Source of the DNA: an uncultured Myxococcales bacterium
GTDB lineage: Bacteria > Myxococcota_A > UBA9042
Length of the DNA: 64,000 bases
Assembly: GCA_903919145.1 (NCBI GenBank)
Contig: CAIXGW010000016.1
Coordinates: forward strand, 113,367-177,366
Reading direction: 5' to 3'
In this document: one piece after another, positions 11,752 through 60,156 of the stretch
Layout of the letters: every line of letters begins with the position of its first letter
How positions within the stretch are numbered: position 1 is the stretch's first letter
Made by a program: the position numbers and the translations under genes
Notes under the pieces: generated by a model
The model's input: the letters and a program-made list of their open reading frames with translations, nothing else
Database searches by the model: none
What the model was told of the DNA's origin: nothing

Positions 11752-11900
11752 CGTAGGTCCTGTGCACCCGGACAGTGGGCGCGGATGGGCGCTGAAAGCA
11801 TCAGCATTTGGTCGGCGATCGCAACCAATAGTTGCCGATGCTGCGGAAAGCCGGTACGGTTTGGCCTTGCGCAGCACTCCGCCGCGCTGGGCAGGGTTCT

Positions 11901-17468: not shown

Positions 17469-17528
17469 AGAAACCTCCCGATCGCGCCGACGCGGCAGTG
17501 CTGACTCTCCAGGCAATGCGCGGTCAGG

Positions 17529-18854
17529 TCAAGAGCCCTGCGCGGCCTGGGGAGGAGTTTGGGCGCGCAGCTCCTGCAGCCAGCTGCCGACTTGGTCCGC
17601 ATCGGCGGGCTGAACGTAGATGCGCGCCAGCACGGTCTGCTCGGCGTAACGCTGAAACAGGCGGGTGGCTTCAGCCAGCGGCAGCCAGCGCGGCGCCCCC
17701 ACGGGCGGCTTCTTGCGCACAAAAATCGAAGCCGCCCCCTCGCCAGCGTGATATTTGGACAGCGCGCCCTTGCTGGTGACGTGCAGGTGGTCTACGCCTT
17801 CGCTGCGCATGCGGTCGACCAGGGCGGCAATCGGCTCTGCCTGGCCCATGGGTCCGGCGGATTCGACCATCATTTTAAGAGGTTTGAGCTGCAGGATCCC
17901 CGCCGCCCAGCTGGAGATCCCGGCGTATTCGCGCAAGGTTCGCCACAGAGAGTGGTCGTCAAAAGCCAAGTAGGCCTCTGGATCTGCTGGGGCGCGGCAG
18001 GCTTGGGGCCACTGCTCGTAGAAGCGCCGCAGCATGTGGTCGTAGCACACGGACTTCTTGTGAAAGTACACCATCAGAAACATGTGGTGGCGAGAGAGCA
18101 GAAAGTCGTCAAAGCTAAAGATCGCGCGGTCTTCCAGGCCAAGGTGCAGGGTGCCGTCCTCTGCTTCAAAGTGGCACAGGTGCGAGATCAGCCAGTCCAC
18201 ATCAAACTTGCCGTAGCTGACCCCAGTGAAGTAGCTGTCTCGCAACAGGTAGTCCATGCGGTCGACATCGAGCTCCGAGGACACCAGCGAAGACAACAGC
18301 CGCTGCAGGTTGCGGTTGCCGATCTGAAAGACTGCGCCATCGCAGGCGACATCTTCAGAGATGAGCGCGGCAATGTGGCTGGGCTCAATGCCCTGAGGGC
18401 CCAGCACCCGGCGCAGCAGCTCGGTCAGGCCCGAGCCCAGCAGGAACTGCAGGGTGTAGTGCTCGTGCGAGCCGTGGCCCCCGGGCAGCGGGCGGCGCAG
18501 GTTGGGAACGCACAGCTGAGAGCCGCTGGGCAGCAGCACCTCTGACGAGTGAGACAGTGGCGGATGGCCCAGATCGTGGCACAGCGCGGCGATGCGCACG
18601 GTCTGGCGGAGGCGGGCGCGCTCGGCGTTGGCCAGCCAGGGGGTGTCTCGCAAGGCGGCGTCAAAAGCCAGGCCGGCCAGGTGCATGGCGCCCAGCGAGT
18701 GCAAAAAGCGACTGTGGCTGCCGCCGGGAAAGGTAAGTTCTGAAAAACCAAGCTGTTTGATGTTGCGCAGCCGCTGCAGGTACGGCGACTCAATGAGTAC
18801 CTGCTCGGCGGCAGAAACAGCGATCGGGCCGTGGATAGGGTCGCGAATTTCCAT
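17529..18854 (-). CDS. HD-domain phosphohydrolase (dGTPase/SAMHD1-like)
   Basis: MEIRDPIHGPIAVSAAEQVLIESPYLQRLRNIKQLG...SRFLHSLGAMHLAG...AALCHDLGHPPLSHSSE...VDRMDYLLRDSYFTGV is the HD-superfamily dNTP triphosphohydrolase-like core. Start set at internal Met (18854). Confidence 0.7.
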   Translation of the reverse strand: MEIRDPIHGPIAVSAAEQVLIESPYLQRLRNIKQLGFSELTFPGGSHSRFLHSLGAMHLAGLAFDAALRDTPWLANAERARLRQTVRIAALCHDLGHPPLSHSSEVLLPSGSQLCVPNLRRPLPGGHGSHEHYTLQFLLGSGLTELLRRVLGPQGIEPSHIAALISEDVACDGAVFQIGNRNLQRLLSSLVSSELDVDRMDYLLRDSYFTGVSYGKFDVDWLISHLCHFEAEDGTLHLGLEDRAIFSFDDFLLSRHHMFLMVYFHKKSVCYDHMLRRFYEQWPQACRAPADPEAYLAFDDHSLWRTLREYAGISSWAAGILQLKPLKMMVESAGPMGQAEPIAALVDRMRSEGVDHLHVTSKGALSKYHAGEGAASIFVRKKPPVGAPRWLPLAEATRLFQRYAEQTVLARIYVQPADADQVGSWLQELRAQTPPQAAQGS

Positions 18855-18873: not shown

Positions 18874-20841
18874 TCAGGGTAGAGGCGAGGCGGGGGCAGT
18901 GGCCGGTGGGGGCTGCAGCTCTGGCCACAGCTGCAAAGCCAGGCTGCGCTGGTCTGCTGCGCGGAGCTGGCCAAAAAGCGCATGGGCTTGGCTCAGCAGC
19001 TGCCCCTGACCCGGCTGCAAGCGGTCCAGCTTGTGCAGCGCAGTCAGCGCTTCTAGCGGACGACCGGCCTTCTCAGCGGCAAACGCCTGTGCCGACAGCC
19101 ATGGCGGCGCCGCGTCTGGGTCTGCGCCAAAGCGCTGCGCCCAAGCTGCAGCATCGGCCGAACCGGCGGCCACGGCAAGTGCATAAATGTCCAGGGGGCG
19201 GCGACCGGTCAAGGCCGCCGCGGGTAGGCGGGCTGCCACGGCAAAAGCGCGCTGGTACTGGGCGCAGGCCATCCCCCAGTCGATCGCTGCCAGGCGCGCC
19301 GCGACCGCCTTCTTGGGCGATGCGGCCAGGGCCTGGACAAAGGGCTCGGCCGCCGCGCAGTCTTTGGCCGCCAGGGCCGCGTCCAGGCCGTTGACCCACG
19401 CCTTGGGATCGTCTGGATCCAGGGCCAGGGCCGCCAAAGCATGGGGCAGAGCCTGGCGGGGATGCCCTTGAATCGTCAGCTGGTGGGCTAGGTTCAGGCG
19501 CATGCGCAGCGAGCGGGGCTCCAGGCGAACGCCGCGCTCATAGATCTGCAGGGATGTCTGCCAATCCTCAGCCACGGCACGGGTTTGTCCGATGCCGGCA
19601 GCCAGCAACGCGCCCGCCGCCAGCCCCGCCCAGCGCAGCTGCCAGCCGCTCAGCTGCACAGCCAGCGCCACCGCCAGCAGCAGCGACGGCAGGGTCAGCA
19701 GCCGGTCGGCGTAGAGCACCGTCCCCGGGGTCAGCAGGTGCGAGACGGGTAGCCAGCAGCCAAGCACGCCCGCCGCCAGCAGCCAGCCGCCGTGGGGAAG
19801 AATCTCTTGAGACAAGGCCTGGTTGTTGAGCCACTGCCGGGCCCAGTGCAGCAGGACCCAGGCTACTGCCGCCAGCAAAGCGACCAGGCCCAAGCCGCCA
19901 AGGGCCGTCAGCGCTGCTGGGGTCGGCCACGCGGCATAGGTGTAGTCGGGGGCCAGGTGGGCGGGCACCAGCAGCTGCCCCAAGGCTCGGCCGGTCAGGT
20001 CCAGCCCGCCCAGCAGCCGCTGTGGCCAGCCCACATAGGCCAGGGGATTGTCGTGGCGGGGCACTTGGGCCTTGAGCAGCGCGCCCACAGCCCACAGCCG
20101 CCAGGCCAGCCACAGCGCCAGCGCCGCGCCGATGGGCAGCAAAGTGGTGCGCAGCCGCAGCCAGCTCGAGCGCCGCGCGGTCGCCCACAGCGCCCACCAC
20201 ACCAAGCCCGCCAGCGCCGACTCCTTGCTGAGCAGCGCCGCCAAGCCCCACAGACACAACCCTAGGGAATGTCCGATGGGGTAAGCAGAGGCCGTGGCCA
20301 GGCTGAACAGGTGGTGGGTGCCGGCGAGCAGTGCCAGCGCCGCCAGCAGCTCTGGGCGGTAGGCGATGGCCATCACCGCCTCGGTGTGGACCGGGTGGAC
20401 GGCGAACAACAGCGCCGTCAGGCCGCCGGCCAGCTGCGCCTGGGCCAACGGCTGACCGCGCCACGCCAGCCAGCGCTGCACCAGCCAGCCGGCCAGCCAA
20501 GAAACCCCCAGCAGCAGAAGCAATTGGCCAAGATGCCGGCCCTGCGGTGAGTCCAGGCCAAGGCCGATCTCGGCGGCAAAGCTCAGAGTCGCCAGCGGCC
20601 GCGCGGCAAAAACGTAGGCGAATTCTGGGCCGCCAAAGTAGCGGGCCCGCAGCAGCTGCGGCCAATCGACGGGCCACTGCACTTGAGGGTGGCCGGTGAC
20701 GGCGGCGCCATCGTCGTGGACATAGCTGGCGTGCCACGCCGCGGGCAGGTAGGCCGCGCCGATCGCCAACCCCAGCGCCGCCAGCCACAGCAGGGCGCGC
20801 AGCGGCAGTCTGCCAAGGGATCGCCCAGACGATTCCAGCAC
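18874..20841 (-). CDS. polytopic membrane protein with C-terminal TPR-like repeats (TMTC/GT39-like putative glycosyltransferase)
   Basis: 655 aa with >10 predicted TM helices, an N-terminal YVHDD loop motif and a C-terminal alpha-helical repeat region. Abuts the rodA stop with zero spacing. Family assignment is by architecture only. Confidence 0.5.
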   Translation of the reverse strand: MLESSGRSLGRLPLRALLWLAALGLAIGAAYLPAAWHASYVHDDGAAVTGHPQVQWPVDWPQLLRARYFGGPEFAYVFAARPLATLSFAAEIGLGLDSPQGRHLGQLLLLLGVSWLAGWLVQRWLAWRGQPLAQAQLAGGLTALLFAVHPVHTEAVMAIAYRPELLAALALLAGTHHLFSLATASAYPIGHSLGLCLWGLAALLSKESALAGLVWWALWATARRSSWLRLRTTLLPIGAALALWLAWRLWAVGALLKAQVPRHDNPLAYVGWPQRLLGGLDLTGRALGQLLVPAHLAPDYTYAAWPTPAALTALGGLGLVALLAAVAWVLLHWARQWLNNQALSQEILPHGGWLLAAGVLGCWLPVSHLLTPGTVLYADRLLTLPSLLLAVALAVQLSGWQLRWAGLAAGALLAAGIGQTRAVAEDWQTSLQIYERGVRLEPRSLRMRLNLAHQLTIQGHPRQALPHALAALALDPDDPKAWVNGLDAALAAKDCAAAEPFVQALAASPKKAVAARLAAIDWGMACAQYQRAFAVAARLPAAALTGRRPLDIYALAVAAGSADAAAWAQRFGADPDAAPPWLSAQAFAAEKAGRPLEALTALHKLDRLQPGQGQLLSQAHALFGQLRAADQRSLALQLWPELQPPPATAPASPLP

Positions 20842-31092: not shown

Positions 31093-31146
31093 GGCCCACA
31101 GGCCTGACCCAATTTGCCCGTGGGGCTGGCTTGGATGGCAGCCGCC

Positions 31147-38436: not shown

Positions 38437-41400
38437 ATGACCCGGTGGATCTCTATGGCAGCAGTGGGGTTGTTGGCAGTAGCGACAACGGCGGCTGCGA
38501 CTGCGGCCCTGGCGACCGGCCACGAGCAGCTACCGGGGACGTGGCGCGAAGTGCGCCGCCAAGTCGAGGGGCAGCGCGCCGACGTGTGGCTGGATCTGCC
38601 AGCCGGCTGGTTTGGGCCCCAGGGTCTGGACGAGCTGCACCTGGAGGCCCTGCAGCGCCGCTATCTGGCCGTCATCGGCGAGCCACCAGAGCAGAGCCTG
38701 CCGGTGCACGCACCCTGGCTGGGGGCTGGCTATGTCCTGGAAAGTCAGCAACAGCCTGGGGATCTGGACCGGCCGCCGGCCCTGCCGGATCAGGTGCGCC
38801 ACGTGGAGTTGTGGGGGCGCTTGCCTCAGCGGGTGTCGCGGCTGGCTGTGCGGCCGGGGCAGTGGACGCGGCTGGTGCAGCTGGTGGCGGACCCCGAGCC
38901 AGTACCGCGCCGACCTTGGGAAAAGCCGCTGCCGGCGGCGCCGGTGGCATCGACCCTGGATGGCGACACGCTGCCCACCCAGGGCAAAGGCTTTCTGAGC
39001 GGCAAGACGGTCTACCTCAGCCCAGGCCATGGCTTTACCTGGACGCAGAACCTGAACCGTTGGGCGACCCAGCGGGGCAACACCCACAACTTGGTAGAGG
39101 ATTTGCTCAACGCTGAGGCAGCCTTTCACTACCTGGTGCCCATGCTGCGCAACGCCGGCGCCCAGGTTGTCACGATGCGCGAGCGCGACCTCAACAGCGC
39201 CGAAGCTGTGGTCGACGACGCCAGCGCCAAGGCCGCCAACGGCAGTGGCTACTCGGAGATCAGCGGCAACTGGCAGGCCGGCACCATCCCCGGCTTTGCC
39301 GCAAAGGCCACGGTGCAGGGCAGCGACAATCCCTTTGTGTTGGGCAGCTATCGGGCCGCCAAGGCCACCGCCGGTGTCGCGACCGCCGCTGCTCAGTTTG
39401 TCCCGTCTGTTCCCACCACCGGGCGCTACGCCGTCTACGTCACTTGGACCGCCAGCGCCAACCGGGTGCCCGACGCCCACTATGAAGTCCGCCACCTGGG
39501 CGGCAGCAGCCATGTGCGCCTGGACCAGACCAAGCACGGCGGCACCTGGGCATGGCTGGGCTATTTCAGTTTTGCCGCGGGCGTCGACCCCAGCAAGGGC
39601 TCGATCGTCTTGCACAATGACACCCTGAGCGGGCTTGCCGACCGCTACGTCATCGCCGACGCTGTGCGCTTTGGCGGCGGCATGGGCAGCGTGGAGCGCG
39701 GCACTGGCAAGCCTCCGGCGGCCGGACCCAATTCTGGTAGGCCGCGCTGGGAAGAAAGTTGCAGGACGTACGCACAGTTTTCTGGAGCACCGTCTTCGGT
39801 GTGGGACTACTCTTCGGACGACCCCAGCGACGACGTCTCCTGCCGCAGCCGCATGGCCGCCTGGCACCACGAAGAGGGCGAGGACGCGATCTTTCTGAGC
39901 TGGCACACCAACGCCCCGTCGCCGGCCCGCGGCACTTCGACCTATGTCTATGGCCCCAACGCTCCCGATGGAAGCTACGACTTCACCGGTACCAAGGGGT
40001 CTGACGCTTTTGGCAAGCTGGTGCAGAAAGTCATGGTGGCCGACATCAAGGCCCTGTGGGACCCGGCTTGGAAGGACCGTGGCGTCTACACCGCCTACTT
40101 TGGCGAGATCAATCCCAAGCACAACAATGAGATGCCTTCCGCCCTGGTCGAGGCGGCCTTTCACTCGACCAAGGAGGACGCCGACCAGCTGCGCGAGCCG
40201 CGCTTTCGCCACCTGCTGGCCCGCTCGCTGTACAAGGCCATTGCCCAGTACTTTGCCGACCGCGACAAGGTGCCGCTGCAGCTGCTGCCAGAGCCGCCCC
40301 AGGCCGTGCAGATGGTGCGGACCGCCGCGGGGACGGCCCAGGTACAGTGGCAGCCGGGACCGACGGGCAGCGTCTACGGCCAGGCGCCCACCAGCTACCT
40401 GGTGCAATTGTCTAAGGATGGTCTTGGTTTTGACGAGGGTACCCCTGCGACGGGCACCAGCGTTGTGGTACCGCTGCCGGCGGGCGCCCAGCCGCTGTTT
40501 GCCCGGGTGGTGGCCATCAATCTTGGCGGGGCGAGCCTGCCGTCGGCGGTGGTGGGCGCGGTCGAGGGCTGTGCCGGCGCGCCGCGGGCCTTGGCGGTGC
40601 AGGGCTTTACGCGCCTGGACTCGGCCCTGGCCCCGGTGGACGACCTGAGCGCCTACTCTCTGGCCAGTGTCCAGCGGCTGCGCCAGAGCAAGATGAACAC
40701 CTATGACTATCTGGTCGCCCACGTCCAGGGCCTGGCGGCTGCGGGGCTGGGCGTCGACAGCGCCGAGAGGCTGGCGGTGACCCCGGCGCTGCTGGCGGGC
40801 CACGCGCTGGTCGACTGGGCGGCGGGAGAAAACTCAAGCATTGAAGGGATCTTTGATGCAGCCGCCAAGCAGGCCATGACCGATTGGCTGCAGGGCGGCA
40901 GCGGCCGCAGCTGGTGGCTCAACGGCGCCGAGGTTCTATGGACGCTGGAAGCCAAAGGCGGCCCGGCAGGCGGCGACTGGCTGGAGACCTGGTTTGGCGC
41001 GCGCTATGGCAGCGATGACGCGGGGATCTACACAGTGCAGGGCGCGGCAGGCATCGCCGGGTCGTGGAACTTTGACGATGGCACCGGTGCGGCGTACCAC
41101 GTCGACTTCCCCGATGTGCTATTGCCCAAGGCTTCGGCAACTATATTGAACTACGCCAGCGGCAAGGGGGTGGCGGCGACGCTGAACCAGCTGCCCAACA
41201 AGTCCAACGCCTTGCTGCTGGGTGTGCCGCTGGAAACGGTCTATCCGCTGCCGGCCCGCCAGGAGCTATTTGCCAAGCTGGTGGCAGCGTCTCTGCCGAC
41301 CACCACCTGCCCGGGCGGCACCGGCGCGGACGCGGGGTCCACGGACGCCGCCGCCGACGTGGGGCTCCCTGACGCCGGGGGAGACGACGCGGGGCCGGCC

Positions 41401-41730
41401 GACGGCGCAGAGTCGGATAGCACGGGTGGTTCTGACGGGACCCAGGACGACGCTGCAGGAGTCGACGGCGCCGGACCTGACGCCGGCTCTGGCGATGGCG
41501 CACCAGCAGACAGCCCTGGTGCCGACGTCGCGCCTGGGGATTTGGCCACCGTGGACGCCGCCGCCGACAGTGTCGCCAAGCCGCTCCCTGTGGCCCCCGC
41601 CCCCGTGGACGATGGCTGCCAAGCGGCGCGCCGCAGCGGGCACGGCGACGCGGCGGTGCTGCTTGGACTGCTGGCCTTGGGCACTCTGCAGGCTCGGCGG
41701 CGGCGGGTGGGGGCATGGCCCTGTGGCTGA
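38437..41730 (+). CDS. large secreted cell-wall amidase-domain protein (embedded Amidase_3 / N-acetylmuramoyl-L-alanine amidase domain) with MYXO-CTERM-like sorting tail
   Basis: 1097 aa with signal peptide. The central region SWHTNAPSPARGTSTYVYGPNAP...AFGKLVQKVMVADIKALWDPAWKDRGVYTAYFGEINPKHNNEMPSALVEAAFHSTKEDADQLREPRFRHLLARSLYKAIAQYF matches Amidase_3 (AmiC-type) motifs. There is an Asp/Gly-rich acidic region. The C-terminal ...DDGCQAARRSGHGDAAVLLGLLALGTLQARRRR is a Cys + hydrophobic + Arg cluster. Confidence 0.75.
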   Translation: MTRWISMAAVGLLAVATTAAATAALATGHEQLPGTWREVRRQVEGQRADVWLDLPAGWFGPQGLDELHLEALQRRYLAVIGEPPEQSLPVHAPWLGAGYVLESQQQPGDLDRPPALPDQVRHVELWGRLPQRVSRLAVRPGQWTRLVQLVADPEPVPRRPWEKPLPAAPVASTLDGDTLPTQGKGFLSGKTVYLSPGHGFTWTQNLNRWATQRGNTHNLVEDLLNAEAAFHYLVPMLRNAGAQVVTMRERDLNSAEAVVDDASAKAANGSGYSEISGNWQAGTIPGFAAKATVQGSDNPFVLGSYRAAKATAGVATAAAQFVPSVPTTGRYAVYVTWTASANRVPDAHYEVRHLGGSSHVRLDQTKHGGTWAWLGYFSFAAGVDPSKGSIVLHNDTLSGLADRYVIADAVRFGGGMGSVERGTGKPPAAGPNSGRPRWEESCRTYAQFSGAPSSVWDYSSDDPSDDVSCRSRMAAWHHEEGEDAIFLSWHTNAPSPARGTSTYVYGPNAPDGSYDFTGTKGSDAFGKLVQKVMVADIKALWDPAWKDRGVYTAYFGEINPKHNNEMPSALVEAAFHSTKEDADQLREPRFRHLLARSLYKAIAQYFADRDKVPLQLLPEPPQAVQMVRTAAGTAQVQWQPGPTGSVYGQAPTSYLVQLSKDGLGFDEGTPATGTSVVVPLPAGAQPLFARVVAINLGGASLPSAVVGAVEGCAGAPRALAVQGFTRLDSALAPVDDLSAYSLASVQRLRQSKMNTYDYLVAHVQGLAAAGLGVDSAERLAVTPALLAGHALVDWAAGENSSIEGIFDAAAKQAMTDWLQGGSGRSWWLNGAEVLWTLEAKGGPAGGDWLETWFGARYGSDDAGIYTVQGAAGIAGSWNFDDGTGAAYHVDFPDVLLPKASATILNYASGKGVAATLNQLPNKSNALLLGVPLETVYPLPARQELFAKLVAASLPTTTCPGGTGADAGSTDAAADVGLPDAGGDDAGPADGAESDSTGGSDGTQDDAAGVDGAGPDAGSGDGAPADSPGADVAPGDLATVDAAADSVAKPLPVAPAPVDDGCQAARRSGHGDAAVLLGLLALGTLQARRRRVGAWPCG

Positions 41731-41780: not shown

Positions 41781-41795
41781 TAACATTGGGTCAGG
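41781..41795 (+). repeat. solo REP-like motif copy: taacattgggtcagg
   Basis: Intergenic, 50 nt after the stop of the 38437-41730 gene. 15/15 identical to the core at 53683 and 54655. Confidence 0.6.
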
Positions 41796-42080
41796 GTATG
41801 ACGGCCACTGCCACGGTCGCATAGCCAGGGGCGTTGCCTCCATCGAGGACCAGCCAAACCCGCCTGGGATGGGCAGCCAGCTGCGACGGGGCGGCGAAGG
41901 TGGCGGGGCGGGCACAGCGTTGCACGCAGGATGCTTTCAGCCAGTAGGTCGATGCTTGGGGGTGTGCCGGGCCAAACACTAGCACTGGCGCGGAGATAAC
42001 ATAGCCTTGGGCAATGTTGGAGCGCTTGACGCTGGCCCAACGCAGGGCGCAAAATAGCCGGAATTGCCGCCGAGGTTGCC

Positions 42081-45000
42081 ATGCCTGCATCCCCTATGCC
42101 GCGTTTCCGCTCGCCGGGCTGGATACGCCGTTTGTTGCCGGCGCTGCTGGTTGTTGCCGCGGGTGGCTGTGGCTCCGACGACGCGGTTCAAGGCCTGGTG
42201 GATCAAGATGCCAGCATCGACGCGACTGCCGATAGCGCCGTGGACAGCCAGGGTAGTGGGAAGTGCTGAAAAGTAAAGGAGGACTGTCCGGCCGCAGCGG
42301 CGGCGTGCCAGGCGGCGCAGTACCACCCGAGCTTGGGCTGCCTGCTGGTGGCCGTACCTGACGGCACCATCTGCAACGACGGCAACGCCTGCACGGCCAG
42401 CGACCTGTGCCTGGCGGGAACCTGCAAGGCGGGCACCGCGGCCGACTGTGGCGACGGTGACCCCTGCACCAGCGACAGCTGCGACGGCGCCAAAGGCTGC
42501 CAGCATGGCCCCGCCGCCGACGGCACCGCCTGCTCTGACGGCGACCCGTGTACCGACGCCGACAGCTGCGCTCAGGGAAAGTGTTTGGCCGGCAAGGGCA
42601 TCTGCGGCTGCAAGTCCAACGCGGAGTGCCAAGACGACGGCAACCTCTGCAATGGCGTGCCGTACTGCGACAAGTCCAACCCTACGGCGCCCAAGTGCCT
42701 GACCAATCCGGCTACGGTGGTCTACTGCCCTGGCGGCTTTGACACAGCCTGCCTCAAGAAGGCCTGCGAACCCAGCAGCGGCACCTGCGCCCCGACGCCG
42801 ATCGAGCTGGCCGTTCAGACCTGCACAGGCGCCAACAGCTGAATCTAGATGAAGAATCAAGGCGGAGCTCCCGTGCCCAAGGTCATTGCCTGCGACGACG
42901 GCAACAAATGCAGCGACGGCGACCTGTGCAAGAACGGCAAATGCAGCGGCGAAGCCAAGAACTGCAGCGACGAGACGGCTTGTACCGCGGACACCTGTGA
43001 CCCGCTGGCTGGCTGCAAGAACTCTCCGCAGACCAGCCTGTGCGACGACCTGGACACCTGCACCGCCGACAGCTGCAGTGCGGTGGCAGGCTGCATCCAC
43101 AAGGCCCTGACCGGCGGCTGTGACGACGCCAGCCCGTGCACCAGCGGCGATACCTGCGGCGCCGGCGGCTGCATTGGCAAGCCGGTGATCTGCGATGACA
43201 AGAACCCCTGCACCGACGATTCCTGCGAAACGACAGAAGGTTGTGTGAGCCTGCCCAACGCCGCGACCTGCAGCACCGGCGAGGCCTGCGCGCCGCTGGG
43301 GCAGTGCGGCGGTGGCATTTGCGCGGCGCTGCCCCCTCCGCTGGGTATCGCCTTGGTGGACGGGGTGGGTACAGACAAGCCCGCCCAGCTGCTGGCCTAA
43401 GACCTCAATGCGGCTTGGCTGGTGGGCTCGACCTCCTCTGGCGCCAAGGGGCCGAGTGACGTGTGGCTGGTCAAGCTGGCGGCGGGCGGTGGCGTGGCCG
43501 GCGAGGTGCTGGTCGGCGCGGAAGGCGAGGAGACTGCGGCTGCGGCGGTGAGCACCGGCGGCGGTGGCGCGCTGGTGGTGGGTTCGGTCAAACCCGGGCC
43601 CCTGGGTGGGCAAGACGCCTTCTTGGTGCGCTTTGGCGCCGATGCGACGGTGGTCTGGAAGCAGGTGGCTGGCGAGGCGGCCGATGACGCTGCCCTGGCG
43701 GTGGCGCTGTTTGGCAAAGACGAGGCGTGGATTGCCGGCAGCTCGCAGCAAAAAGGGCTGACGCTGCCCTGGGTCACGCGCGTTTCGGCGGTGGGTACTG
43801 TGCTGTGGCAGAAGCCGCTGGCCGGCGCGGCCGGGGTGGCGCGGGCGGTGGCGGCAATTCCCGGTGGCGGCGCCTGGCTGGCCGGAGAGCGCCTGGATCC
43901 CGCCGGCAAGCCAGTGTGGTGGGCCGCGCGGTTGGCTGCCGACGGCAAAATCCTGTGGGAGTGCGGCCTCTCTGCGCTGACGGGCTCTGCCAACGCCGTG
44001 GTCGTAATGGCCGATGGCGGCGCGCTATTGGCCGATTGGCAGGGGGCTGGCTTTGAGGATGCGCGGGCGGCCAGGGTCGATGGCGCGGGCAAGGTCTTGT
44101 GGGACAAGCTGTTTGGCGGTGCTGGCGGCGCCTGGTTTGGCCAGCTGACCTTGGCCGAGGCGCAGACTGTGCGCTTTGCCGGCCAGCGCGAAGTCGACGG
44201 CACGTGGCACGCCTGGGTCGGAGGGCTGGACCTGGGGGGGGCAGCCGGTGTGGGACCGCACCCCGGTGCAGGCCAGCAGCGGTGGGGCCGTGACGGTCGC
44301 AGCGCTGAGCTCTGGCTACCTGACGCTGGCTGCGGGCTGGGCCGATGCGACGACCAAGGGCGGGGCAGTGCGAGTCGTCCGGGCCGACCCGTGGGGCTAT
44401 GCCACCTGCCAGGCCCAGGGCGACTGCGCCGGCAAGACCACCCAGGTGTGCGACGACGCCAATCCGTGCACCAACGACACCTGCTTTGCCCTGCTGGGCT
44501 GTTCGCACCAGCTCAACGCTTTGGCTTGCGACGACTGCAATCCTTGCACAGAGAACGACCTCTGCGACGCCGGGCAGTGCGCGGGAGACGGCCAGGGCAC
44601 CTGCGACGACGGCAACCCCTGCACCCAAGACCTGTGCAACCTCAGCGGCGGCTGCAGCCACACCCCGCTGACCGGCGGCTGCAGTGACGGCAACTTCTGT
44701 ACCCTCAAGGACCAGTGCGCAGGAGGCTTCTGCAAGCCCGGGCTGCTGGACGGCTGCGACGACAGCAATACGTGCACCGACGACAGCTGCCTGCCAAGCA
44801 AGGGCTGCCAGCATCTGCCCAACAGCAGCGACTGCCAGTCGGGCAACTGCACCTATGCCGACAGCTGCATCAAGGGGGCTTGCGTTTCTTCCGCCAAGGC
44901 GGGCTTTGTAGACCAGTGGTACGGCACGGCGGTGGCCGAGCGGCCGCGCAAGCTCGCGCAGATCGGTCAGGAGGGATTCTGGTTGGTGGGAGACAGCTAC

Positions 45001-52785: not shown

Positions 52786-53024
52786 AGCGGCGATGCCTTC
52801 TCGACGGTGCCAATCGCGCCTTGCACCGCCAGTTCAGCCACAACGTTGTGGGCGGCGTGCTCTTCGGCGTAGTCGGCGATGACCTGGGCCTGCCCGGCCA
52901 GCACCTGCTTGAGCAGGGCCACCCGTGCCTCATGGGCGCGCTGCCCCTGGCCATGCTTTTGGACGATCCGCTCGACGCGCTCGAGCTTGGCGGCGGGAAA
53001 GGAGCTGAGTCTGACCTGGTACAT
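52782..53024 (-). CDS. small hypothetical protein (80 aa)
   Basis: ORF with high GC3 overlapping the moaA start by 4 nt (ATGA). No recognisable motif. Could be spurious. Confidence 0.3.
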   Translation of the reverse strand: MYQVRLSSFPAAKLERVERIVQKHGQGQRAHEARVALLKQVLAGQAQVIADYAEEHAAHNVVAELAVQGAIGTVEKASPL

Positions 53025-53132
53025 GGCGACCTCCGGACAGCATGATCGCCCCCGCCGCCGTCCAGGTCAACCTGCTGTCTGCAGTTGGCCCGCCCGCGGC
53101 CCGTCCTGCACTTGCGCCGGGAAGATTCGCTG

Positions 53133-53149
53133 CCTGACCCAATGTTAAC
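53133..53149 (-). repeat. 17-nt REP-like motif copy (left inverted end): gttaacattgggtcagg on the minus strand
   Basis: Exact 15-17 nt match to the copies at 54653, 53683 and 41781. Confidence 0.7.
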
Positions 53150-53351
53150 TTTTTGGTATTGCATGATTTTCTCGACATCCTTGTCGTCCAGCACTTCGGC
53201 ATCTGGCCATGCTCTGAGAATCTGAGCCAAGAGGGCTATCGGGGCATTGGCCAGAAGTGGGGAAGCGGTCCCGAAAACTAACCCTCAGCAGTACACAAAG
53301 CCAATCCCTGAGCGCTCGGACCGAGCCGAGTAGTCCTTTCGGCCAACTGCG

Positions 53352-54611
53352 CTAGTCCGGCACCGGCATCGTCCCAACCAGGGTATGTGGCGGCAGACGA
53401 AAGCGCGGCCCCGTGAGCCCCTCGAGGCTCGACCGTGCCCGCGTTCGCCATCGCTGCTTTGCCTCTGCATACGCCGCGCACACGGCTAGGTACTGCTCTT
53501 CGTATGCTATGACTTCCTTGAGGTTCGCCGACAACAGGTAGGGCATCCTCTTCTTCTTGCCGTTGCGCTTCTTTGCCTTTGGGGGGCCTTGCTCGTAGGG
53601 CATGTCGTACTCCGACTTGCGATCAGGAATGCAGACCACCTCCACCCCGGATGTCCCGAAATAACCATTTGTGTCAGGCGTATAACATTGGGTCAGGCTC
53701 TCTTGCTGCTGCTCCATGGCGAATCGCGCTGGGCCACTGAGCAGCGGGGTCTTGCGCAGCACGTGCAGCGGCACGGTCGCCACCTCGTCGGCGATCGCGC
53801 GATAGCGGAGTTGCAGCTCGCCCGGGCTGAGGTCGGCCCAGCACCGCGGCGGGCTGATCGGCAACTCCACAGTTCGCGTGTAGGCATCCAGCGGACCAGC
53901 ACCGGCCTTCAGTTGGGCGTCGCGGTAGCGTCTTGTGAGATCAATCAGTTTTCCGATCAGTGGCTTGCCATCGATCATGGGGGCGGCGCAGGAGACCCCA
54001 GGAAACTGAATTGGATGATCGACCAAGCCGGCCTTGACGCCTTGGCCGAGAATGTAGCGGATGCGCCGTCCAACCGAGACTTCATCTTGAGCGACCGCCA
54101 CCCACTTGTTTTCACACCAGAACTTCCCGTTTGAGCCAAGGCGCTCGTGAGCAAGCCGGGCCAGTCCTCCGTGAAAATGCATCAGGAATTTGCAGAACTT
54201 TCCAGAGCTCGCGATCTCGAACAGGCCGTGGTAGTGGTTGGTCATGAAATGCACGGCGACGATCTTGACTTCGTAGATGGTGGCGGCCAGAAACAACAGG
54301 CCGACGATTCTGCCGCTCAGCTCTTGATCGTTGGGGTCAAAGGCGAACTTTCCGTTGTTGGTGCGAATCGTGATTTCCTGCAGGTACTTGGGGTCGTAGT
54401 AGCGGACCAAGCTGGCGCAGCGTGGTTCAAGGAGCTTCTTGCTGTTGGCCTTGGAGTCTTGGCGAATCGCATTCATCGGGGACCGTCCACCAGTGACGTT
54501 GCAGCTGGTATAGAAGGTTTCGTCAGTTGGCGACAAAAACCGCGGCGGCTTACGCAAATTGCCGAAAGAAACTTTTGCCCGTGGTTGGCTGTCGCGATTG
54601 CGCGATCGCAC
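53352..54611 (-). CDS. IS200/IS605-family-like Y1 (HUH) transposase-like protein, long form (REP-associated tyrosine transposase candidate)
   Basis: 419 aa. Core ...KIVAVHFMTNHYHGLFEI...(HUH motif HYH)...GKFWCENKWVAVAQDEVSVGRRIRYILGQG (catalytic Tyr context resembling YIxNQ/YIxNNP). ~200-aa C-terminal extension with KKRNGKKKR. Lower GC than the flanks. Start codon uncertain (alternative Met at 54476). Confidence 0.5.
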   Translation of the reverse strand: MRSRNRDSQPRAKVSFGNLRKPPRFLSPTDETFYTSCNVTGGRSPMNAIRQDSKANSKKLLEPRCASLVRYYDPKYLQEITIRTNNGKFAFDPNDQELSGRIVGLLFLAATIYEVKIVAVHFMTNHYHGLFEIASSGKFCKFLMHFHGGLARLAHERLGSNGKFWCENKWVAVAQDEVSVGRRIRYILGQGVKAGLVDHPIQFPGVSCAAPMIDGKPLIGKLIDLTRRYRDAQLKAGAGPLDAYTRTVELPISPPRCWADLSPGELQLRYRAIADEVATVPLHVLRKTPLLSGPARFAMEQQQESLTQCYTPDTNGYFGTSGVEVVCIPDRKSEYDMPYEQGPPKAKKRNGKKKRMPYLLSANLKEVIAYEEQYLAVCAAYAEAKQRWRTRARSSLEGLTGPRFRLPPHTLVGTMPVPD

Positions 54612-54652
54612 TGCGACTCAGCGAACACGAGAATTGCCTATGGATGGAGCAC

Positions 54653-54669
54653 AGATAACATTGGGTCAG
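54653..54669 (+). repeat. 17-nt REP-like motif copy (right inverted end): gataacattgggtcagg
   Basis: Inverted relative to the 53133 copy. The following ~10 nt (ctctgttgg) also resemble the internal copy (ctctcttgc). Confidence 0.7.
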
Positions 54670-54775
54670 GCTCTGTTGGTTTTGGGAACTGGGGCGTCTT
54701 GGGCTTGCCGCCGCGCTCGCCGTGCTGTACAGCCTAGGGGCGGCCCCGGCTCGTTGGTCGCAGTGGAGGCTGGGT

Positions 54776-55630
54776 GTGCATGTAGTCGTGGCGGGTTGCG
54801 GGTGGCTGGGCTTGGCCATCGGGCGTGAGCTGTTGAACCAGGGGCATCGAGTGACGGCGGTGCGCCGAGACCCGGCCAGGGCGGCGGAGTTGGCTGCGGC
54901 GGGGTTGGAGCCGTTGGTGCTGGACTTGACTGAGCCGAACGCGCATCGGCAGTTGCCTGCGGACGTGCAGGCGCTGGTGGGTTGTCAGTCGGCGCGCTCG
55001 GATAGCGCCGAGGGCTATCGCGCGGCCTACCTGGGCGTCAACCGGACGCTGCTGCGTGCGGCCGAGGAGCTGCAGGTGCAGGCGCTGGTCTATACTGGAT
55101 CTACGGGTGTTTTTGGCTATAGCGATGGCCGTGAGGTTCAGGAGGATGCAGCGGTGGACCCGCGCAGTCCCACGGCAGAAGTGCTCGTAGAGGCTGAGCA
55201 GCTGCTGGTCGAGGCCGGGCAGCGCGGCCTGCCGACGCGGGTGGTGCGCTTGTCAGGACTCTACGGTCCAGGGCGTTGGGGGACGCAGCAGCGGGTCCGC
55301 TCGGGGGCGCTGGCCCTGGGACCAGGGGACGACGCTTTCATGAACTTCTGCCACCTTGACGACGCCGTGGCTGCCGTGCTGGGCGCCTTGCGGTCTGGCC
55401 GCGATGGCGCCATCTACCACGCGAGCGATGCCGCGCCGCCGCGCCGTAGCGAGGTGGTGCAGTGGATGGCAGCGCGTTTGGGCATCCAAGCGCGGGTTTC
55501 AGCGCAGCCTGCCGCTGTCGGTGCGGCCAACCGTCGCATCCGTGCGGAGTGGAGCCGTCAACAGCTAGGGCTGACGCTGGTACATCCGGACTTTCGCTCT
55601 GGTTTTTCACTTGCGCCCACGGTGTCCTGA
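54776..55630 (+). CDS. NAD-dependent epimerase/dehydratase-family (extended SDR) protein
   Basis: VHVVVAGCGWLGLAIGRELLNQGHRVTAVRRDPARAAELAAAGLEPLVLDL Rossmann fold. Start probably GTG ~54776 (the ORF track gives an upstream start at 54722 that overlaps the repeat region). Confidence 0.7.
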   Translation: MHVVVAGCGWLGLAIGRELLNQGHRVTAVRRDPARAAELAAAGLEPLVLDLTEPNAHRQLPADVQALVGCQSARSDSAEGYRAAYLGVNRTLLRAAEELQVQALVYTGSTGVFGYSDGREVQEDAAVDPRSPTAEVLVEAEQLLVEAGQRGLPTRVVRLSGLYGPGRWGTQQRVRSGALALGPGDDAFMNFCHLDDAVAAVLGALRSGRDGAIYHASDAAPPRRSEVVQWMAARLGIQARVSAQPAAVGAANRRIRAEWSRQQLGLTLVHPDFRSGFSLAPTVS

Positions 55631-55761: not shown

Positions 55762-58700
55762 ATGAATGCGCAGCAATTGCCCAGCCGCCCGGTGCCGTTG
55801 ACACAGGCGTTCCGCAGTCAGCTATCGACGTTGACCACCTTTTCTGGGCTTGCCCGGCTGCTGCCCTTGGCATTGATGGTCATGCTGGGCGCTGGAGCCG
55901 GTTGCGGCACCGTGGCCGTGCAAGAAGCTCCGGGCGGCGCCAGCGGCTCCACCGACGCCGCAGTCAGTGGCGACGCGACGGACGCCGACACCGCCAGCAC
56001 GGCCGACACCACGCCAGTCGACGTGCCGGTAAAGGCTGAATGCGAGACCGATTTTGACTGCTTTGCCATCGTGACCGGAAAGAACCCTTGCAGCCCGCCG
56101 GTGTGCGAAGCCGGCAAGTGCACCAAGAAGAAGAAGGCCGCAGGTACTGCGTGCAACGACCCTTCTCTCTCGCCCGGCGACTGCCAGAAAATGGCCTGCA
56201 ATGACATGGGCATCTGCGCTGTGGCGGATCTGGCCAACGGCACATCCTGCGGGCTAGGCGTTTGCGGCAAGAAGTGCGACGTCGGCCTGTGCGTGGCTGC
56301 CAGCGCCACCGACTATGATGACGGCAATGCCTGTACCAAAGACTATTGCAATCAAGGATTTGAGGTCCGCCACGACCCAATCACCGACCTGACCGAGCTG
56401 TGCGACGACAGCGATGCGTGCACCAGTGGCGACGCGTGCGTGAAAGGCAAGTGCAAAGGCCAAGCGCTGAGCTGCAATGACGGCATTGCGTGCACGGCTG
56501 ATAGCTGCGACCCGGTCAAGGGCTGTGTAGCCGCGCCCAAAGATGAGCTGTGCGATGACGGCGACGTCTGCACCAAGCAGACCTGCGACGCGGCCACCGG
56601 CTGCAAACAGGCCGGCTTTGCTGCCGGTGTCAGCTGCGACGACGGCAACGCCTGTACCAGCGGAGAAACCTGCAACGATCAGGGTATTTGCGCCGGCGAG
56701 TCAACTTGCAGCTGCAGCGCGGACGCCGACTGCAAGCAGGACAACTTGTGCCTTGGCCCGGTGGCGTGTGTCACCGGCAAGTGCGTCGCCGACTCGACCA
56801 AAGCCGTGAATTGCGACAGCAGTGGCGACACCGCGTGCATGAAGAGCGTCTGCGCCGCCAGTACCGGCCAGTGCAGCCTGCAGCCGCTGGCCGAGGGCAA
56901 GACCTGCGAAGACGGCAACGCTTGCACCTCGCTCTCGACTTGCGTTGCTGGCCAGTGCAGCGGCACTGCCGACAAGAAGTGCGACGACAGCAATCCGTGC
57001 ACCGCCGACGCGTGCTCGCCGCAAAGTGGCTGCGTCTACACGGCCAACAGCGCCAGCTGCGACGATGGAAATCCCTGCACTACCAGTGACATCTGCGACA
57101 AGGGTGGCTGCACCGGCAGCCCGCTGCCCTGCGACGACGGCCTTTCTTGCACGCTGGACAGCTGCGACACCAAGACCGGCAAGTGCGCCAACCAGCCAAC
57201 CGCCAAAGCCTGCGACGACAGCCAGCCTTGCACCACCGACGCCTGCGACCTGACCAAGGGCTGCACCAACGTGCCAGCCAATGGTCTGGCCTGTGACGAC
57301 GGTGACAACTGCACCTCGCCAGACAAGTGCAGCGCCGGTAAGTGCGGTGGCCCCTACACCTGCCAGTGCAAGGCCAACGCCGACTGCAATGACAACAACC
57401 CTTGCACGGTAGACAAGTGCGACGCCGGTAAGTGCTCAGCCGACCCCACCGCCGCCAACGGCACAGCGTGCAGTTCCTCTGACAAGTGCCAAATGCCCAA
57501 CACCGGCAAGTGTAGCGCCGGCGTGTGCGCGGCTACCAACCAGCCCATCACTTGCACCGCGCTGACCACCTGCCAGAATGCCGCCTGCAACCCGGCCAGC
57601 GGCAAATGCGAAAGTGTCAACAAGCCCGACGGCACCGGCTGCGATGCCGACAAAGATGGCTGTACCGTTGCCGACAAGTGCGCGGCCGGTCAGTGCGTGG
57701 CCGGTGTCAAGGCCCAGTGTGCCAGTACCGGGCCCTGCAGCGCCGGCACCTGCAAGTCCGACGCAGCGCAACCGTCCGGGTATAGCTGCACCCAGACAGC
57801 ACTGGCCGCTGGAACGGCCTGCGAAGACGGGCAGTACTGCACCGGCGGAGACAAGTGCGACTCGGCCGGCAAGTGCGCCGCTGGGCCTGCGGTGTCTTGC
57901 GCTTCTTTGACCGATGCCTGCAACACCGGCACCTGCGATGAGGGCAAGGACCAGTGCATCAAGACCGCCAAGGCCAGCACCGTGGCGTGCGACGATGCGT
58001 TGTACTGTTCGATTTCAGACCATTGCGATGGCGTGGGCAAGTGCATTGGCGGCAGCGCCCGCACCTGTGCCGGGGGCAACTGCTTGGTGGGGGCCTGCGA
58101 CGAGGCTGGCGACAAGTGCGGCACCAAGCCCGCAGCTGCTGGCGCGACCTGCACCGACGGCAGCATTTGCACCCAGGCCGACACCTGTGACAGCGCCGGC
58201 GTGTGCAAGGGCGCCAATCCCCAGGTCTGTGACGACAAGAACCCCTGCACGACCGATAGCTGTGACGCCGTCAAGGGCTGCGTCTACACCCCCGCTGCGG
58301 GTGCCACCTGCGACGACGGCAATTCCTGCACCACCGGCGACAAGTGCGACACTGCCGGCAATTGCCAGGCCGGCACTTTTGTCTGCCAGTGCCAGACGGA
58401 CGCGGGCTGCAACGACGCCAACGCCTGCACCACGGACAAGTGTGTGGCCAACAAGTGCAGCAATACCATCACCGCAGGGGCCGTCTGCGATGACAAGAAC
58501 CCGTGCTCGCTGGCCAGCACGTGCAACTCCACTGGCGCCTGCGTGGCTGACGCCACCAAGACCTACGACTGCTCGGCGCAAAACGACACCTGCAACACTG
58601 GCGTTTGCTACGCTTCGACCGCTGGTACGGCAGCTTGCAAGAAGCAGCCCAAGCCCAAGGGCGTGAGCTGCGACGATGGCCAGTACTGCACAACTGGCGA

Positions 58701-60156
58701 TCTTTGCGATGATGTGGGCAAGTGCATCGGCGGCGTCGCCCCCACCTGCCCCAAGCCCGCCACCTGCATGGCTGCCCTGTGCACCGAAGCGGCCAAAGGC
58801 TGTACCACCCAGCCCCAAGCCTTGGGTACCGCCTGCAGCGACAACGACCCCTGCACTGCGGGCGACAACTGCAATGGAACCGGCACCTGTACGGTCGGCT
58901 CACCGATGGCCGACTTCTCTGCCTGTGACGACGCCATTGCCGCGACCGGCGGCGACTTTTGCTACAACAAGCTGTGCAAGGGCTTTGCGCTGCAGAACGG
59001 CCCTGCGCTTGGGCCGATTGGCCGCATCGACTACCAAAGCCAGGCCAAGACGTGGACCGCTACCAGCAACCCGGGCTATGTGGCAGATGAACTGGCCCCC
59101 AACAACTGGTCGGTGCATGTCGCCAAGACCACGCCCGACGTGTCGCTGCAGGTGTGGACGCAAACCATGGGCGCTATGCCCGGCACCTTGCACGCCACAG
59201 CGGACCAGGTGATGGTCGGGCTTGGCAACGGGTTGTGGGTCCAGCCCGCCGGGTTGACGACGTGGAAGAATACCTCTGCTCTGCACACGGCCATCAAGGC
59301 CGCGGTCAGCGCGTCTATCGATTGGGACAGCGTCGACACCCGCCTGAGCGGCACCACGCTGTACGTCGGCCTGACGGGCTTTGCTCCGCTCAACAACTTG
59401 ACCTTCTTGCTGCAGTGTTCTGGCGACAACGCCTTTGCCGGTGCCTGGACCTGCAAGGCCTTTGCCATGCCGAGCTCTTTGAAAATGGTTAGTTCCAAGC
59501 TGTGGACCTACACCTCTTGCTTGGCCTGCCCCGTCACGACCCACCACGCCGTGGCCGGCCTGGTCAAGAGCGGCACCACCACCGTGTCGGGCATCAATGA
59601 GTACAACAACCCCTTTGGCGGCACCGGCTACGTGGCCACCGTTGGCCCGACCTACTCGGCGCCCACCACATTGCTGTTTGCCGACAACTGGCACTCCGGC
59701 TACGCGCTCAAGAGCCAGACCGGAGCGACGTTCCAGTGGCTGGTTGGGCCTCTTGGCACCATTGCCTATGGCAAGTTTGGCTCGGCGGGCATCTTCAGCG
59801 CCTCGGTCACCAAAGGTGTCCAGTCGAGCTACAACTTCCGCAACATCGTCAAGTACGGGTCCACAGTGCTGGTGTCTGGCAGCAAGCCCGATCCTGCCAA
59901 CACTTCAAACCGCTTGCCGGTGGTGTTCAGCCATACCGACCTGATTGACCAGCAGTCAGGGGCTAGCTACTGGACAGAGCTCATCCTGCCGGCCGCGCCT
60001 TTCAACCAAGTCTACTGCGCCGTCGATGGCATCACCGCGCCGTCGATGTCGGTGGCGGCTGGCGGCCTGATGGTGTGGGTCAACACCTGCAACAACCAGA
60101 CCCTGAGCAAGGGCGTGCTGGCGCGGCGCGGCTACGTCTACTACCGGCCGTTCTAA
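55762..60156 (+). CDS. giant (1464 aa) cysteine-rich repeat lipoprotein with C-terminal ~480-aa Cys-poor globular domain
   Basis: Signal/lipobox (LALMVMLGAGAGCGTV). ~25 tandem Myxococcus-type disulfide repeats (C.DGN.CT.D.CD...G.C). The C-terminal domain (from ~FALQNGPALGPIGRIDYQ) has no recognisable family. Confidence 0.85.
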   Translation: MNAQQLPSRPVPLTQAFRSQLSTLTTFSGLARLLPLALMVMLGAGAGCGTVAVQEAPGGASGSTDAAVSGDATDADTASTADTTPVDVPVKAECETDFDCFAIVTGKNPCSPPVCEAGKCTKKKKAAGTACNDPSLSPGDCQKMACNDMGICAVADLANGTSCGLGVCGKKCDVGLCVAASATDYDDGNACTKDYCNQGFEVRHDPITDLTELCDDSDACTSGDACVKGKCKGQALSCNDGIACTADSCDPVKGCVAAPKDELCDDGDVCTKQTCDAATGCKQAGFAAGVSCDDGNACTSGETCNDQGICAGESTCSCSADADCKQDNLCLGPVACVTGKCVADSTKAVNCDSSGDTACMKSVCAASTGQCSLQPLAEGKTCEDGNACTSLSTCVAGQCSGTADKKCDDSNPCTADACSPQSGCVYTANSASCDDGNPCTTSDICDKGGCTGSPLPCDDGLSCTLDSCDTKTGKCANQPTAKACDDSQPCTTDACDLTKGCTNVPANGLACDDGDNCTSPDKCSAGKCGGPYTCQCKANADCNDNNPCTVDKCDAGKCSADPTAANGTACSSSDKCQMPNTGKCSAGVCAATNQPITCTALTTCQNAACNPASGKCESVNKPDGTGCDADKDGCTVADKCAAGQCVAGVKAQCASTGPCSAGTCKSDAAQPSGYSCTQTALAAGTACEDGQYCTGGDKCDSAGKCAAGPAVSCASLTDACNTGTCDEGKDQCIKTAKASTVACDDALYCSISDHCDGVGKCIGGSARTCAGGNCLVGACDEAGDKCGTKPAAAGATCTDGSICTQADTCDSAGVCKGANPQVCDDKNPCTTDSCDAVKGCVYTPAAGATCDDGNSCTTGDKCDTAGNCQAGTFVCQCQTDAGCNDANACTTDKCVANKCSNTITAGAVCDDKNPCSLASTCNSTGACVADATKTYDCSAQNDTCNTGVCYASTAGTAACKKQPKPKGVSCDDGQYCTTGDLCDDVGKCIGGVAPTCPKPATCMAALCTEAAKGCTTQPQALGTACSDNDPCTAGDNCNGTGTCTVGSPMADFSACDDAIAATGGDFCYNKLCKGFALQNGPALGPIGRIDYQSQAKTWTATSNPGYVADELAPNNWSVHVAKTTPDVSLQVWTQTMGAMPGTLHATADQVMVGLGNGLWVQPAGLTTWKNTSALHTAIKAAVSASIDWDSVDTRLSGTTLYVGLTGFAPLNNLTFLLQCSGDNAFAGAWTCKAFAMPSSLKMVSSKLWTYTSCLACPVTTHHAVAGLVKSGTTTVSGINEYNNPFGGTGYVATVGPTYSAPTTLLFADNWHSGYALKSQTGATFQWLVGPLGTIAYGKFGSAGIFSASVTKGVQSSYNFRNIVKYGSTVLVSGSKPDPANTSNRLPVVFSHTDLIDQQSGASYWTELILPAAPFNQVYCAVDGITAPSMSVAAGGLMVWVNTCNNQTLSKGVLARRGYVYYRPF

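Follow-up and report, generated by a model that had tools for sequence, protein, structure and literature searches.

Among bacterial transposases that have been domesticated, REP-associated tyrosine transposases (RAYTs) and their repetitive extragenic palindromes (REPs) are the textbook example, and nearly all work on them concerns Proteobacteria and hairpin repeats. We analyzed a 64,000-nt stretch of DNA from an uncultured Myxococcales bacterium (assembly GCA_903919145.1, contig CAIXGW010000016.1, forward-strand positions 113,367 to 177,366; hereafter the window), in which a gene for a RAYT-like Y1/HUH enzyme lies between inverted copies of a 15-nt motif. The closest described category for this cassette is the TIRtron, a gene for a tyrosine transposase associated with terminal inverted repeats (TIRs), rather than REP/RAYT or IS200/IS605. 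We favor, with a probability of about 0.6, a TIRtron- or REPtron-like unit, that is, a single-copy, vertically inherited and (semi-)domesticated Y1/HUH gene framed by inverted copies of its own recognition motif. Since the motif also lies inside the gene and stands alone elsewhere, the unit would be a new branch of a known domesticated mobile element and not a classic REP system.

TIR-associated tyrosine transposases (TIRYTs) were described by Di Nocera et al. 2013 (PMC3733652), where RAYT-like genes flanked by TIRs and accompanied by moderately abundant TIR families are on record; they largely correspond to subclass 2.1 of Quentin et al. 2018 (PMC6006769) and to Group 1 of Bertels et al. 2017. 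The REPtron consists of a RAYT or TnpA-REP gene with its REPs or REPINs (E. coli 4ER8; NCBIfam NF047646). Quentin et al. further distinguish TnpA-Y1 class 3, which is marked by a Q-type Tyr motif, "atypical secondary structures" and a CnGA foot and occurs in Proteobacteria, Acidobacteria and Planctomycetes, and report that subclass 2.4 tnpA-REP genes carry in-frame REP copies (PMC6006769). The transposases of IS200/IS605 insertion sequences (IS608, ISDra2; PF01797) complete the set of relatives with which the window cassette can be compared. This cassette spans 53133-54670 (1,538 bp), and its parts are as follows.

53352..54476, minus strand: Y1/HUH tyrosine enzyme gene, long form, 374 aa
54656-54670, minus strand: upstream (5') end motif, exact copy of the gene-strand 15-mer CCTGACCCAATGTTA
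54653..54673, minus strand: 21-nt block GAGCCTGACCCAATGTTATCT around the upstream motif, ~180-195 nt before the start codon
54535..54545, minus strand: 5'-leader box CCGCGGTTTTT, ~65 nt before the start codon, the second perfectly conserved island of the 5' spacer in comparison with the sister genome L122
53683..53697, minus strand: intragenic 15-mer, exact, in the orientation of the upstream copy, encoding LTQCY in a disordered, hypervariable linker
53662-53678, minus strand: degenerate second unit CCTGACACAAATGGTTA (gene strand), directly after the intragenic 15-mer
53133..53147, plus strand: downstream (3') end motif, exact, inverted relative to the upstream and intragenic copies
53148..53351, minus strand: 3' spacer from stop codon to downstream motif, of which ~145 nt are genome-specific; longer than in L122, L121 and L123

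The 15-mer TAACATTGGGTCAGG occurs exactly four times in the window, on the plus strand at 41781-41795, 53683-53697 and 54656-54670 and as its reverse complement at 53133-53147. Allowing up to three mismatches gave five matches where 0.62 were expected, a number reached by none of 100 shuffles, which bears out the preliminary description of this locus in holding the recurrence to be beyond chance; the copies it reported inside the gene at 53683 and after a gene stop at 41781 are both exact. The inverted 17-nt repeats it placed at the cassette edges are a real pair, but are exact over 15 nt and match at 16 of 17 positions over the longer span, with the right arm at 54654-54670 rather than 54653-54669. 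The bare 15-mer had at least 118 single matches in a genome collection (596 Gb), in unrelated taxa and at the level of chance. The hairpins looked for around the motif copies in the window did not form (z from -0.66 to +2.2); the motif is not palindromic, and neither a GT[AG]G foot nor GTAG is present in it. A non-palindromic motif with no fold around its copies is not a REP. The REP/RAYT system originally proposed is thus retained in its superfamily, its system logic, the inverted framing and the solo intergenic copies, and is given up in its repeat type and family membership.

Comparison with the sister genome L122 (NadB 96% identical) gave no sign of the recent insertion that had been considered at this locus. 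Both genomes have the gene, repeats included, between an epimerase-like gene and small-ORF/MoaA/NadB genes. At residues identical in the two genomes, the codon was also identical for 50% in the gene and for 47–67% in six neighbors, so the gene diverged together with its neighbors. A shared locus with its repeats and a host-like synonymous divergence indicate that the cassette is old and vertically inherited. The 5' spacers of the two genomes are only ~55% identical overall, with two perfect blocks, the 21-nt GAGCCTGACCCAATGTTATCT and the box CCGCGGTTTTT, and these alignments show purifying selection on the motif inside otherwise diverged spacers. The window holds one copy of the cassette, and no homologues were found in plasmid records, phage records or viral contigs. 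As far as 64 kb of genome can show, the gene is single-copy, vertically inherited and housekeeping-like, as are those of RAYT and TnpA-REP proteins.

The arrangement of the motif is conserved beyond the sister genome. Loci encoding 62–70%-identical proteins keep all three sites, upstream at about -185, intragenic in the same orientation and downstream inverted, with 0–3 substitutions in each; this layout with the window motif is present in L122, L121 and L123-129. Homologues of ~40% identity retain the layout with different motif sequences, making five lineages in all. In the lineages of the window, L150/L151 and L130/L133, homologous loci have their upstream copy at about -183 to -195, and downstream copies in inverted orientation occur in L122, L121, L123, L130 and L151. 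Across the family the motif changes together with the protein lineage, as RAYT proteins and their repeats co-evolve (PMC8266576, PMC5581495). The motifs of the four other lineages are as follows.

L130 and L133: 25-nt imperfect palindrome GGACAGTCC-N4-GGGATTGTCTGA, with two copies upstream, one in the gene and one downstream
L137: CCAGGGCTTTGGTT
L145: GCACCCTTGTGTCAGA, with two copies upstream 183 nt apart and one in the linker
L150 and L151: CCCAAGGCAATGTTA, also given as CCCAAGGC(A/T)A(T/C)GTTA

The motif of L130/L133, a sister lineage to that of the window, folds as an imperfect hairpin (z down to -2.3), and its upstream and intragenic copies have 48–51 nt in common. Next to a window-type cassette, at L123 1832-1858, we also found a hairpin of this type, AGACATTGCCCTGGGGACTGTCTGG, 62 nt beyond the downstream 15-mer, which means that different motif families co-occur in one genome. 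In L121 two further degenerate motif-like units, CTGACCCAGATCAAC and TCGACCCAGATCAAC, stand in tandem just upstream of the upstream motif (590-647).

Within the gene, the motif copy is the sole conserved island of the hypervariable linker (alignment columns 300-400), where it reads LTQCY, CLxHEN or PGLCQ depending on the lineage. The window and L122 are identical at 14 of its 15 bases in a linker that has otherwise diverged. Scores for the match between upstream and linker copies were 14–21 for cognate pairs in three lineages, against a between-lineage background of 9.2 ± 1.2 (maximum 13). Most likely the intragenic copy has been maintained as a third site of binding or cleavage, which may serve in autoregulation or as an alternative end, and is not an accident. 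The degenerate unit that follows it in the window suggests that the linker may hold a tandem motif pair.

The protein belongs to the Y1/HUH (IS200/RAYT) superfamily, as a member of the long form on a deep branch, with an HUH motif and a catalytic Tyr on a ferredoxin-like core. The HUH motif (NHYHG; H81, H83) lies at 54228-54236 and the catalytic Tyr141 at 54054-54056 (RIRYILGQG); both had been recognized from the outset, and H81, H83, W120, Y141 and Q145 (RYILGQ) are invariant among 33 aligned homologues. The core of ~165 aa is RAYT-like and is followed by a conserved extension to about residue 245, a disordered linker (248–276) and a conserved C-terminal region of ~90 aa, into which the basic patch falls. 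An AlphaFold model was confident (predicted local distance difference test, pLDDT, 83; predicted template modeling score, pTM, 0.80) except at the termini and in the linker (pLDDT <50), and a structural search of the PDB with the ~200 non-core residues (165–374) returned no convincing match. The open reading frame (ORF) can be extended to a GTG at 54611 (53352..54611, minus strand), which yields the 419 aa first reported, but the database form of 374 aa begins at M46 (54476), a start preceded by a Shine-Dalgarno-like GGAnGG box conserved in four loci, and the 45 codons upstream are not conserved as protein. A "PRF" in these codons had looked conserved; stops and frame changes in L121 and L123 place that conservation at the DNA level, in the CCGCGGTTTTT box, and the stretch was rejected as coding.

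A profile of the family, searched against 1.84 billion representatives clustered at 50% identity, retrieved 154 proteins at E ≤ 1e-30, 1,097 at ≤ 1e-10 and 3,753 at ≤ 1e-3, many of them 300–370 aa long with a Y-[IL]-x-x-[QH]-G motif. The close homologues form 33 clusters among 5.8 billion proteins, and a protein-pattern scan of metagenomes added one relative, L145. All ten relatives tested against the RAYT model NF047646 fell under its cut-off (25–56 bits); some pass Pfam Y1_Tnp (26–35 bits) and others are missed. The host itself is related to named Myxococcales and Myxococcota metagenome-assembled genomes, with an L-aspartate oxidase 70–76% identical to their proteins.

Like a TIRtron, the window has a RAYT-like Y1/HUH gene between non-palindromic TIRs at fixed distances. 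The likeness extends to TIRs that at times form small dispersed families (single, dimeric or grouped), to low gene copy number and to the possibility that several different genes occur in one genome, with separate TIRs. In the window TIR, TGGGTCAG agrees with the published TIRtron core GGGGWSAS at 7 of 8 positions; the combination of this core with a C-terminal helix-turn-helix (HTH) is not found here. TIRYTs are ~238 aa long with a Y-x3-N-P motif, whereas the window protein has 374 aa and Y-x3-Q-[GA]. It also lacks the Bac_DnaA_C or HTH_23/HTH_28 tail of subclass 2.1 (no HTH or Bac_DnaA_C domain was matched in Pfam) and has instead the family-specific extension, the disordered linker and a C-terminal region without a PDB match. 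The conserved intragenic motif copy is a further difference of the window family.

With the REPtron the locus has in common a single-copy, vertically inherited gene and cognate repeats both inverted around it and dispersed in intergenic DNA. It differs in a motif without palindrome or GT[AG]G foot, in a density of solo copies that appears low in the window and in Y141-I-L-G-Q145-G/A in place of the Y-x3-N-P of RAYT class 2 (signature from PMC6006769, Table 1). The window motif begins with CTGA, and the L130/L133 hairpins with CGGA, CCGA or CAGA, as would suit the class 3 foot, but class 3 proteins have ~178 aa, NHVH and Y-x4-Q. The in-frame insertions of subclass 2.4 separate the HUH motif from the Tyr motif instead of falling in a linker after the core, and are not described as positionally conserved. 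The cassette resembles IS200/IS605 in its HUH/Tyr core with Y-x3-Q spacing and in being one small unit delimited by end-specific DNA signals, without target duplication. Those transposases, however, are dimeric and ~150 aa long, and the ends of their elements are hairpins, subterminal and directly oriented on a single strand, whereas the window ends are inverted and without hairpins. They are also multi-copy and near-identical, in contrast to the one copy in the window and a 99%-identical cassette in two to three contexts among its relatives. Three features set this locus apart, namely a protein of the long form whose Tyr motif is of the Q type and whose non-core regions are new, a motif that varies within one small family between hairpin and plain 15-mer, and the positionally conserved intragenic copy that tracks the motif of its lineage.

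We then considered the composition of the cassette and its non-coding parts. At 58.4% GC (coding sequence 59.7%), the cassette is the lowest-GC stretch of 1,538 nt in the window, whose mean is 66.5% (standard deviation 1.9). It had been recognized as a low-GC island, at ~54% against ~68%; values of 54–55% are those of its non-coding ends. Recent insertion was rejected as the cause of the low GC. Every homologous cassette lies 3–8 GC points under its own flanks, long-resident ones included, which makes low GC a feature of the element itself and not a sign of recent arrival. The CCGCGGTTTTT box of the leader is also present in L121, L123, L150 and L151; it is perfect in six loci of two lineages within a leader that is not conserved around it, was scored as a weak terminator-like site and is possibly such a site or a regulatory one. 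The extra ~145 nt of the 3' spacer are unique among all sequence compared and absent from homologous loci. An ORF fragment in this spacer (53230-53130), proposed as a partner gene or a remnant of the insertion target, was rejected, since three assemblies have no gene call there and homologous loci lack the ~145 nt. Rfam gave no match on 52800-55000 (E ≤ 1).

Outside the cassette, we found the following solo sites in the window.

41781..41795, minus strand: solo 15-mer, exact, in a convergent intergenic region, without flank similarity to the cassette
31103..31117, plus strand: degenerate solo copy matching at 12 of 15 bases, located in an intergenic spacer of 54 nt between convergent genes
41990..42019, minus strand: solo copy of the motif type of another paralogue (L150/L151), extended into a small palindrome TAACATAGCCTTGGGCAATGTTG

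The first of these lies 51 nt past the stop of ORF 38437..41730. The second, reported at 31102 in the preliminary description and indeed in a convergent spacer, has a contiguous 12-mer, GCCTGACCCAAT, in common with the downstream copy and is probably a true motif copy, although chance could explain it if only mismatches were counted, with 0.62 expected at three mismatches. The third (GGAGATAACATAGCCTTGGGC family) lies where ORF 41979..43751 has its 3' end, with the solo 15-mer 200 nt away; it agrees with the upstream end of the cassette in L151 at 22 of 23 nt and with an L151 solo copy at 21 of 22. Its cognate gene is not in the window, which implies a second cognate gene elsewhere in the genome and a clustering of solo motifs. 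A long ORF on the minus strand also contains a marginal match to the hairpin motif of the L133 type, AGACACAACCCTAGGGAATGTCCGA at 20252-20276, with 19 of 25 positions in agreement, which may be due to chance.

Dispersed copies also occur in relatives. L151 has an exact solo copy at 6095, 3.7 kb from its gene. In L137 a further inverted copy stands at 12487, beyond a neighboring gene of the histone deacetylase family (region 11462-12500) that may be a passenger, and three tandem units of 107 nt, all containing the 20-mer ACCCAGGGCTTTGGTTAGCC, take up a convergent spacer (17434-17754) at a distance of 6.5 kb. The solo copies have just the 15-mer in common with the cassette (22–23 nt for the other motif type). 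There is also evidence of movement of the cassette as a whole. In a close relative (P0005/P0183), a cassette of 1,473 bp, 99% identical, occurs in three combinations of flanks, drawn from two on the left and two on the right; homology begins 7–11 nt outside the upstream motif and stops inside the downstream motif, after TAACATAGGGT. In P0019 the homology of L134 and L133 runs up to the outer edge of the distal hairpin and stops precisely there. No target-site duplication was found at the cassettes. As a separate observation, the intervals L146 5112-5263 and L123 104-254 are 79% similar, one lying upstream of a cassette and the other ~520 nt downstream of a cassette in another context, which hints at rearrangement or at paralogous flanks around cassettes.

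By analogy with TnpA-REP and IS608 TnpA, the protein would bind its own motif, probably on single-stranded DNA at replication forks, and would cleave and rejoin DNA beside it through Tyr141, with a metal ion held by H81 and H83 (PMC3479197, PMC8266576). The expected outcome would be an occasional spread of the short motif and, more rarely, of the whole cassette. As the window-lineage motif has no hairpin, recognition is probably sequence-specific, and it may use the family-specific extension and the C-terminal regions. A further proposal, which we offer tentatively and consider rather unlikely, is that the upstream, intragenic and downstream copies form one functional unit, in which the linker copy, as a third binding or cleavage site, would provide self-targeting feedback on the expression or integrity of the gene or an alternative end releasing a 3' sub-cassette. 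If true, HUH transposases would have a means of self-regulation that has not been described for them, and this would help explain the long persistence of these genes as single copies. Another account of the intragenic copy is an in-frame passenger insertion without a function of its own, as in the tnpA-REP genes of subclass 2.4. That precedent (PMC6006769) and the position in a disordered, hypervariable linker that would tolerate an insertion are in its favor, but a passenger would hardly occupy the same linker position in all five lineages and track their own motif in at least three, have 48–51 nt in common with the upstream copies in L130/L133 or stay identical at 14 of 15 bases between the window and L122 while the linker around it diverged. 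We regard the passenger account as somewhat unlikely. The intragenic and downstream copies, being inverted, could in principle also bound an invertible segment; this is unlikely, as inversion puts a TAA directly after the Cys codon and three assemblies show the same orientation.

Two other explanations concern the cassette as a whole. It could be an ordinary autonomous insertion sequence of a new type, with 15–17-bp TIRs and a Y1 transposase, that still transposes whole and whose solo motifs are scars or remnants of lost copies. The inverted ends, the 99%-identical cassettes of the close relative in different flanks with breakpoints at the motifs, and a GC content under that of the host in all loci would all fit. 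This explanation is nonetheless unlikely, since the 64 kb contain one copy, the sister genome shares the locus and the synonymous divergence there matches that of host genes, target-site duplications and plasmid, phage or viral carriers are missing, only 33 close clusters occur among 5.8 billion proteins, and the solo copies resemble the cassette no further than the 15-mer (22–23 nt for the other motif type). Alternatively, the motif could be mainly a double-stranded operator, bound by the non-catalytic regions of the protein or by a host factor, with solo copies as sites of a regulon and no DNA moved. A non-palindromic motif without hairpin, at a fixed position of about -185 beside a second conserved leader box and in front of a gene long at its locus, would fit an operator; an operator does not account, however, for HUH and Tyr catalytic residues that are invariant family-wide, for motif copies that coincide with cassette breakpoints in relatives, for solo copies in convergent 3' spacers instead of promoters or for the 107-nt tandem arrays of L137, which resemble repeat proliferation. 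We judge the operator explanation distinctly improbable.

Several observations weigh against the TIRtron- or REPtron-like unit that we favor. The profile matches proposed as a check of family membership are specific yet weak: the sole Pfam match is PF01797 Y1_Tnp at 19.4 bits (cut-off 23; E = 1.2e-3; model positions 33-118), the sole NCBIfam match is REP_Tyr_transpos NF047646 at 31.7 bits against an equivalog cut-off of 80, and the similarity to solved Y1 transposases is marginal (E ~0.05). The motif is without the hairpin that every structurally characterized Y1 enzyme recognizes, and DNA binding, strand preference and cleavage site are drawn by analogy. Solo copies of the 15-mer number one exact and one degenerate in the 62 kb outside the cassette. 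The rule of inverted ends is not universal, in that the downstream copy of L133 is in direct orientation and far away and that of L137 lies beyond another gene, and in two of the five lineages the intragenic copy matches the upstream one over just 8–12 nt. Finally, cassette mobility is read from metagenome contigs that are short and in which chimeric joins across a 1.5-kb repeat are possible.

The locus is flanked by very large Cys-rich secreted proteins with Dicty_CTDC repeats (55762-60156, 1,464 aa; others at ~43–46 kb), and the proteins with these repeats around it are 79% identical in the sister genome.

The locus belongs to an unannotated, deep-branching, long-form clade, and the window protein, like several of the relatives tested, escapes the curated models of Pfam and NCBIfam. 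For annotation, this means that such genes are better called RAYT-like or TIR-associated Y1 tyrosine enzymes than IS200 transposases or hypothetical proteins, and that the low GC of the cassette should not be taken as recent horizontal transfer. For the family, the range from imperfect hairpin to plain 15-mer offers a natural series for how Y1 enzymes change their mode of DNA recognition, and the positionally conserved copy of the motif in the linker provides a directly testable hypothesis of self-regulation.

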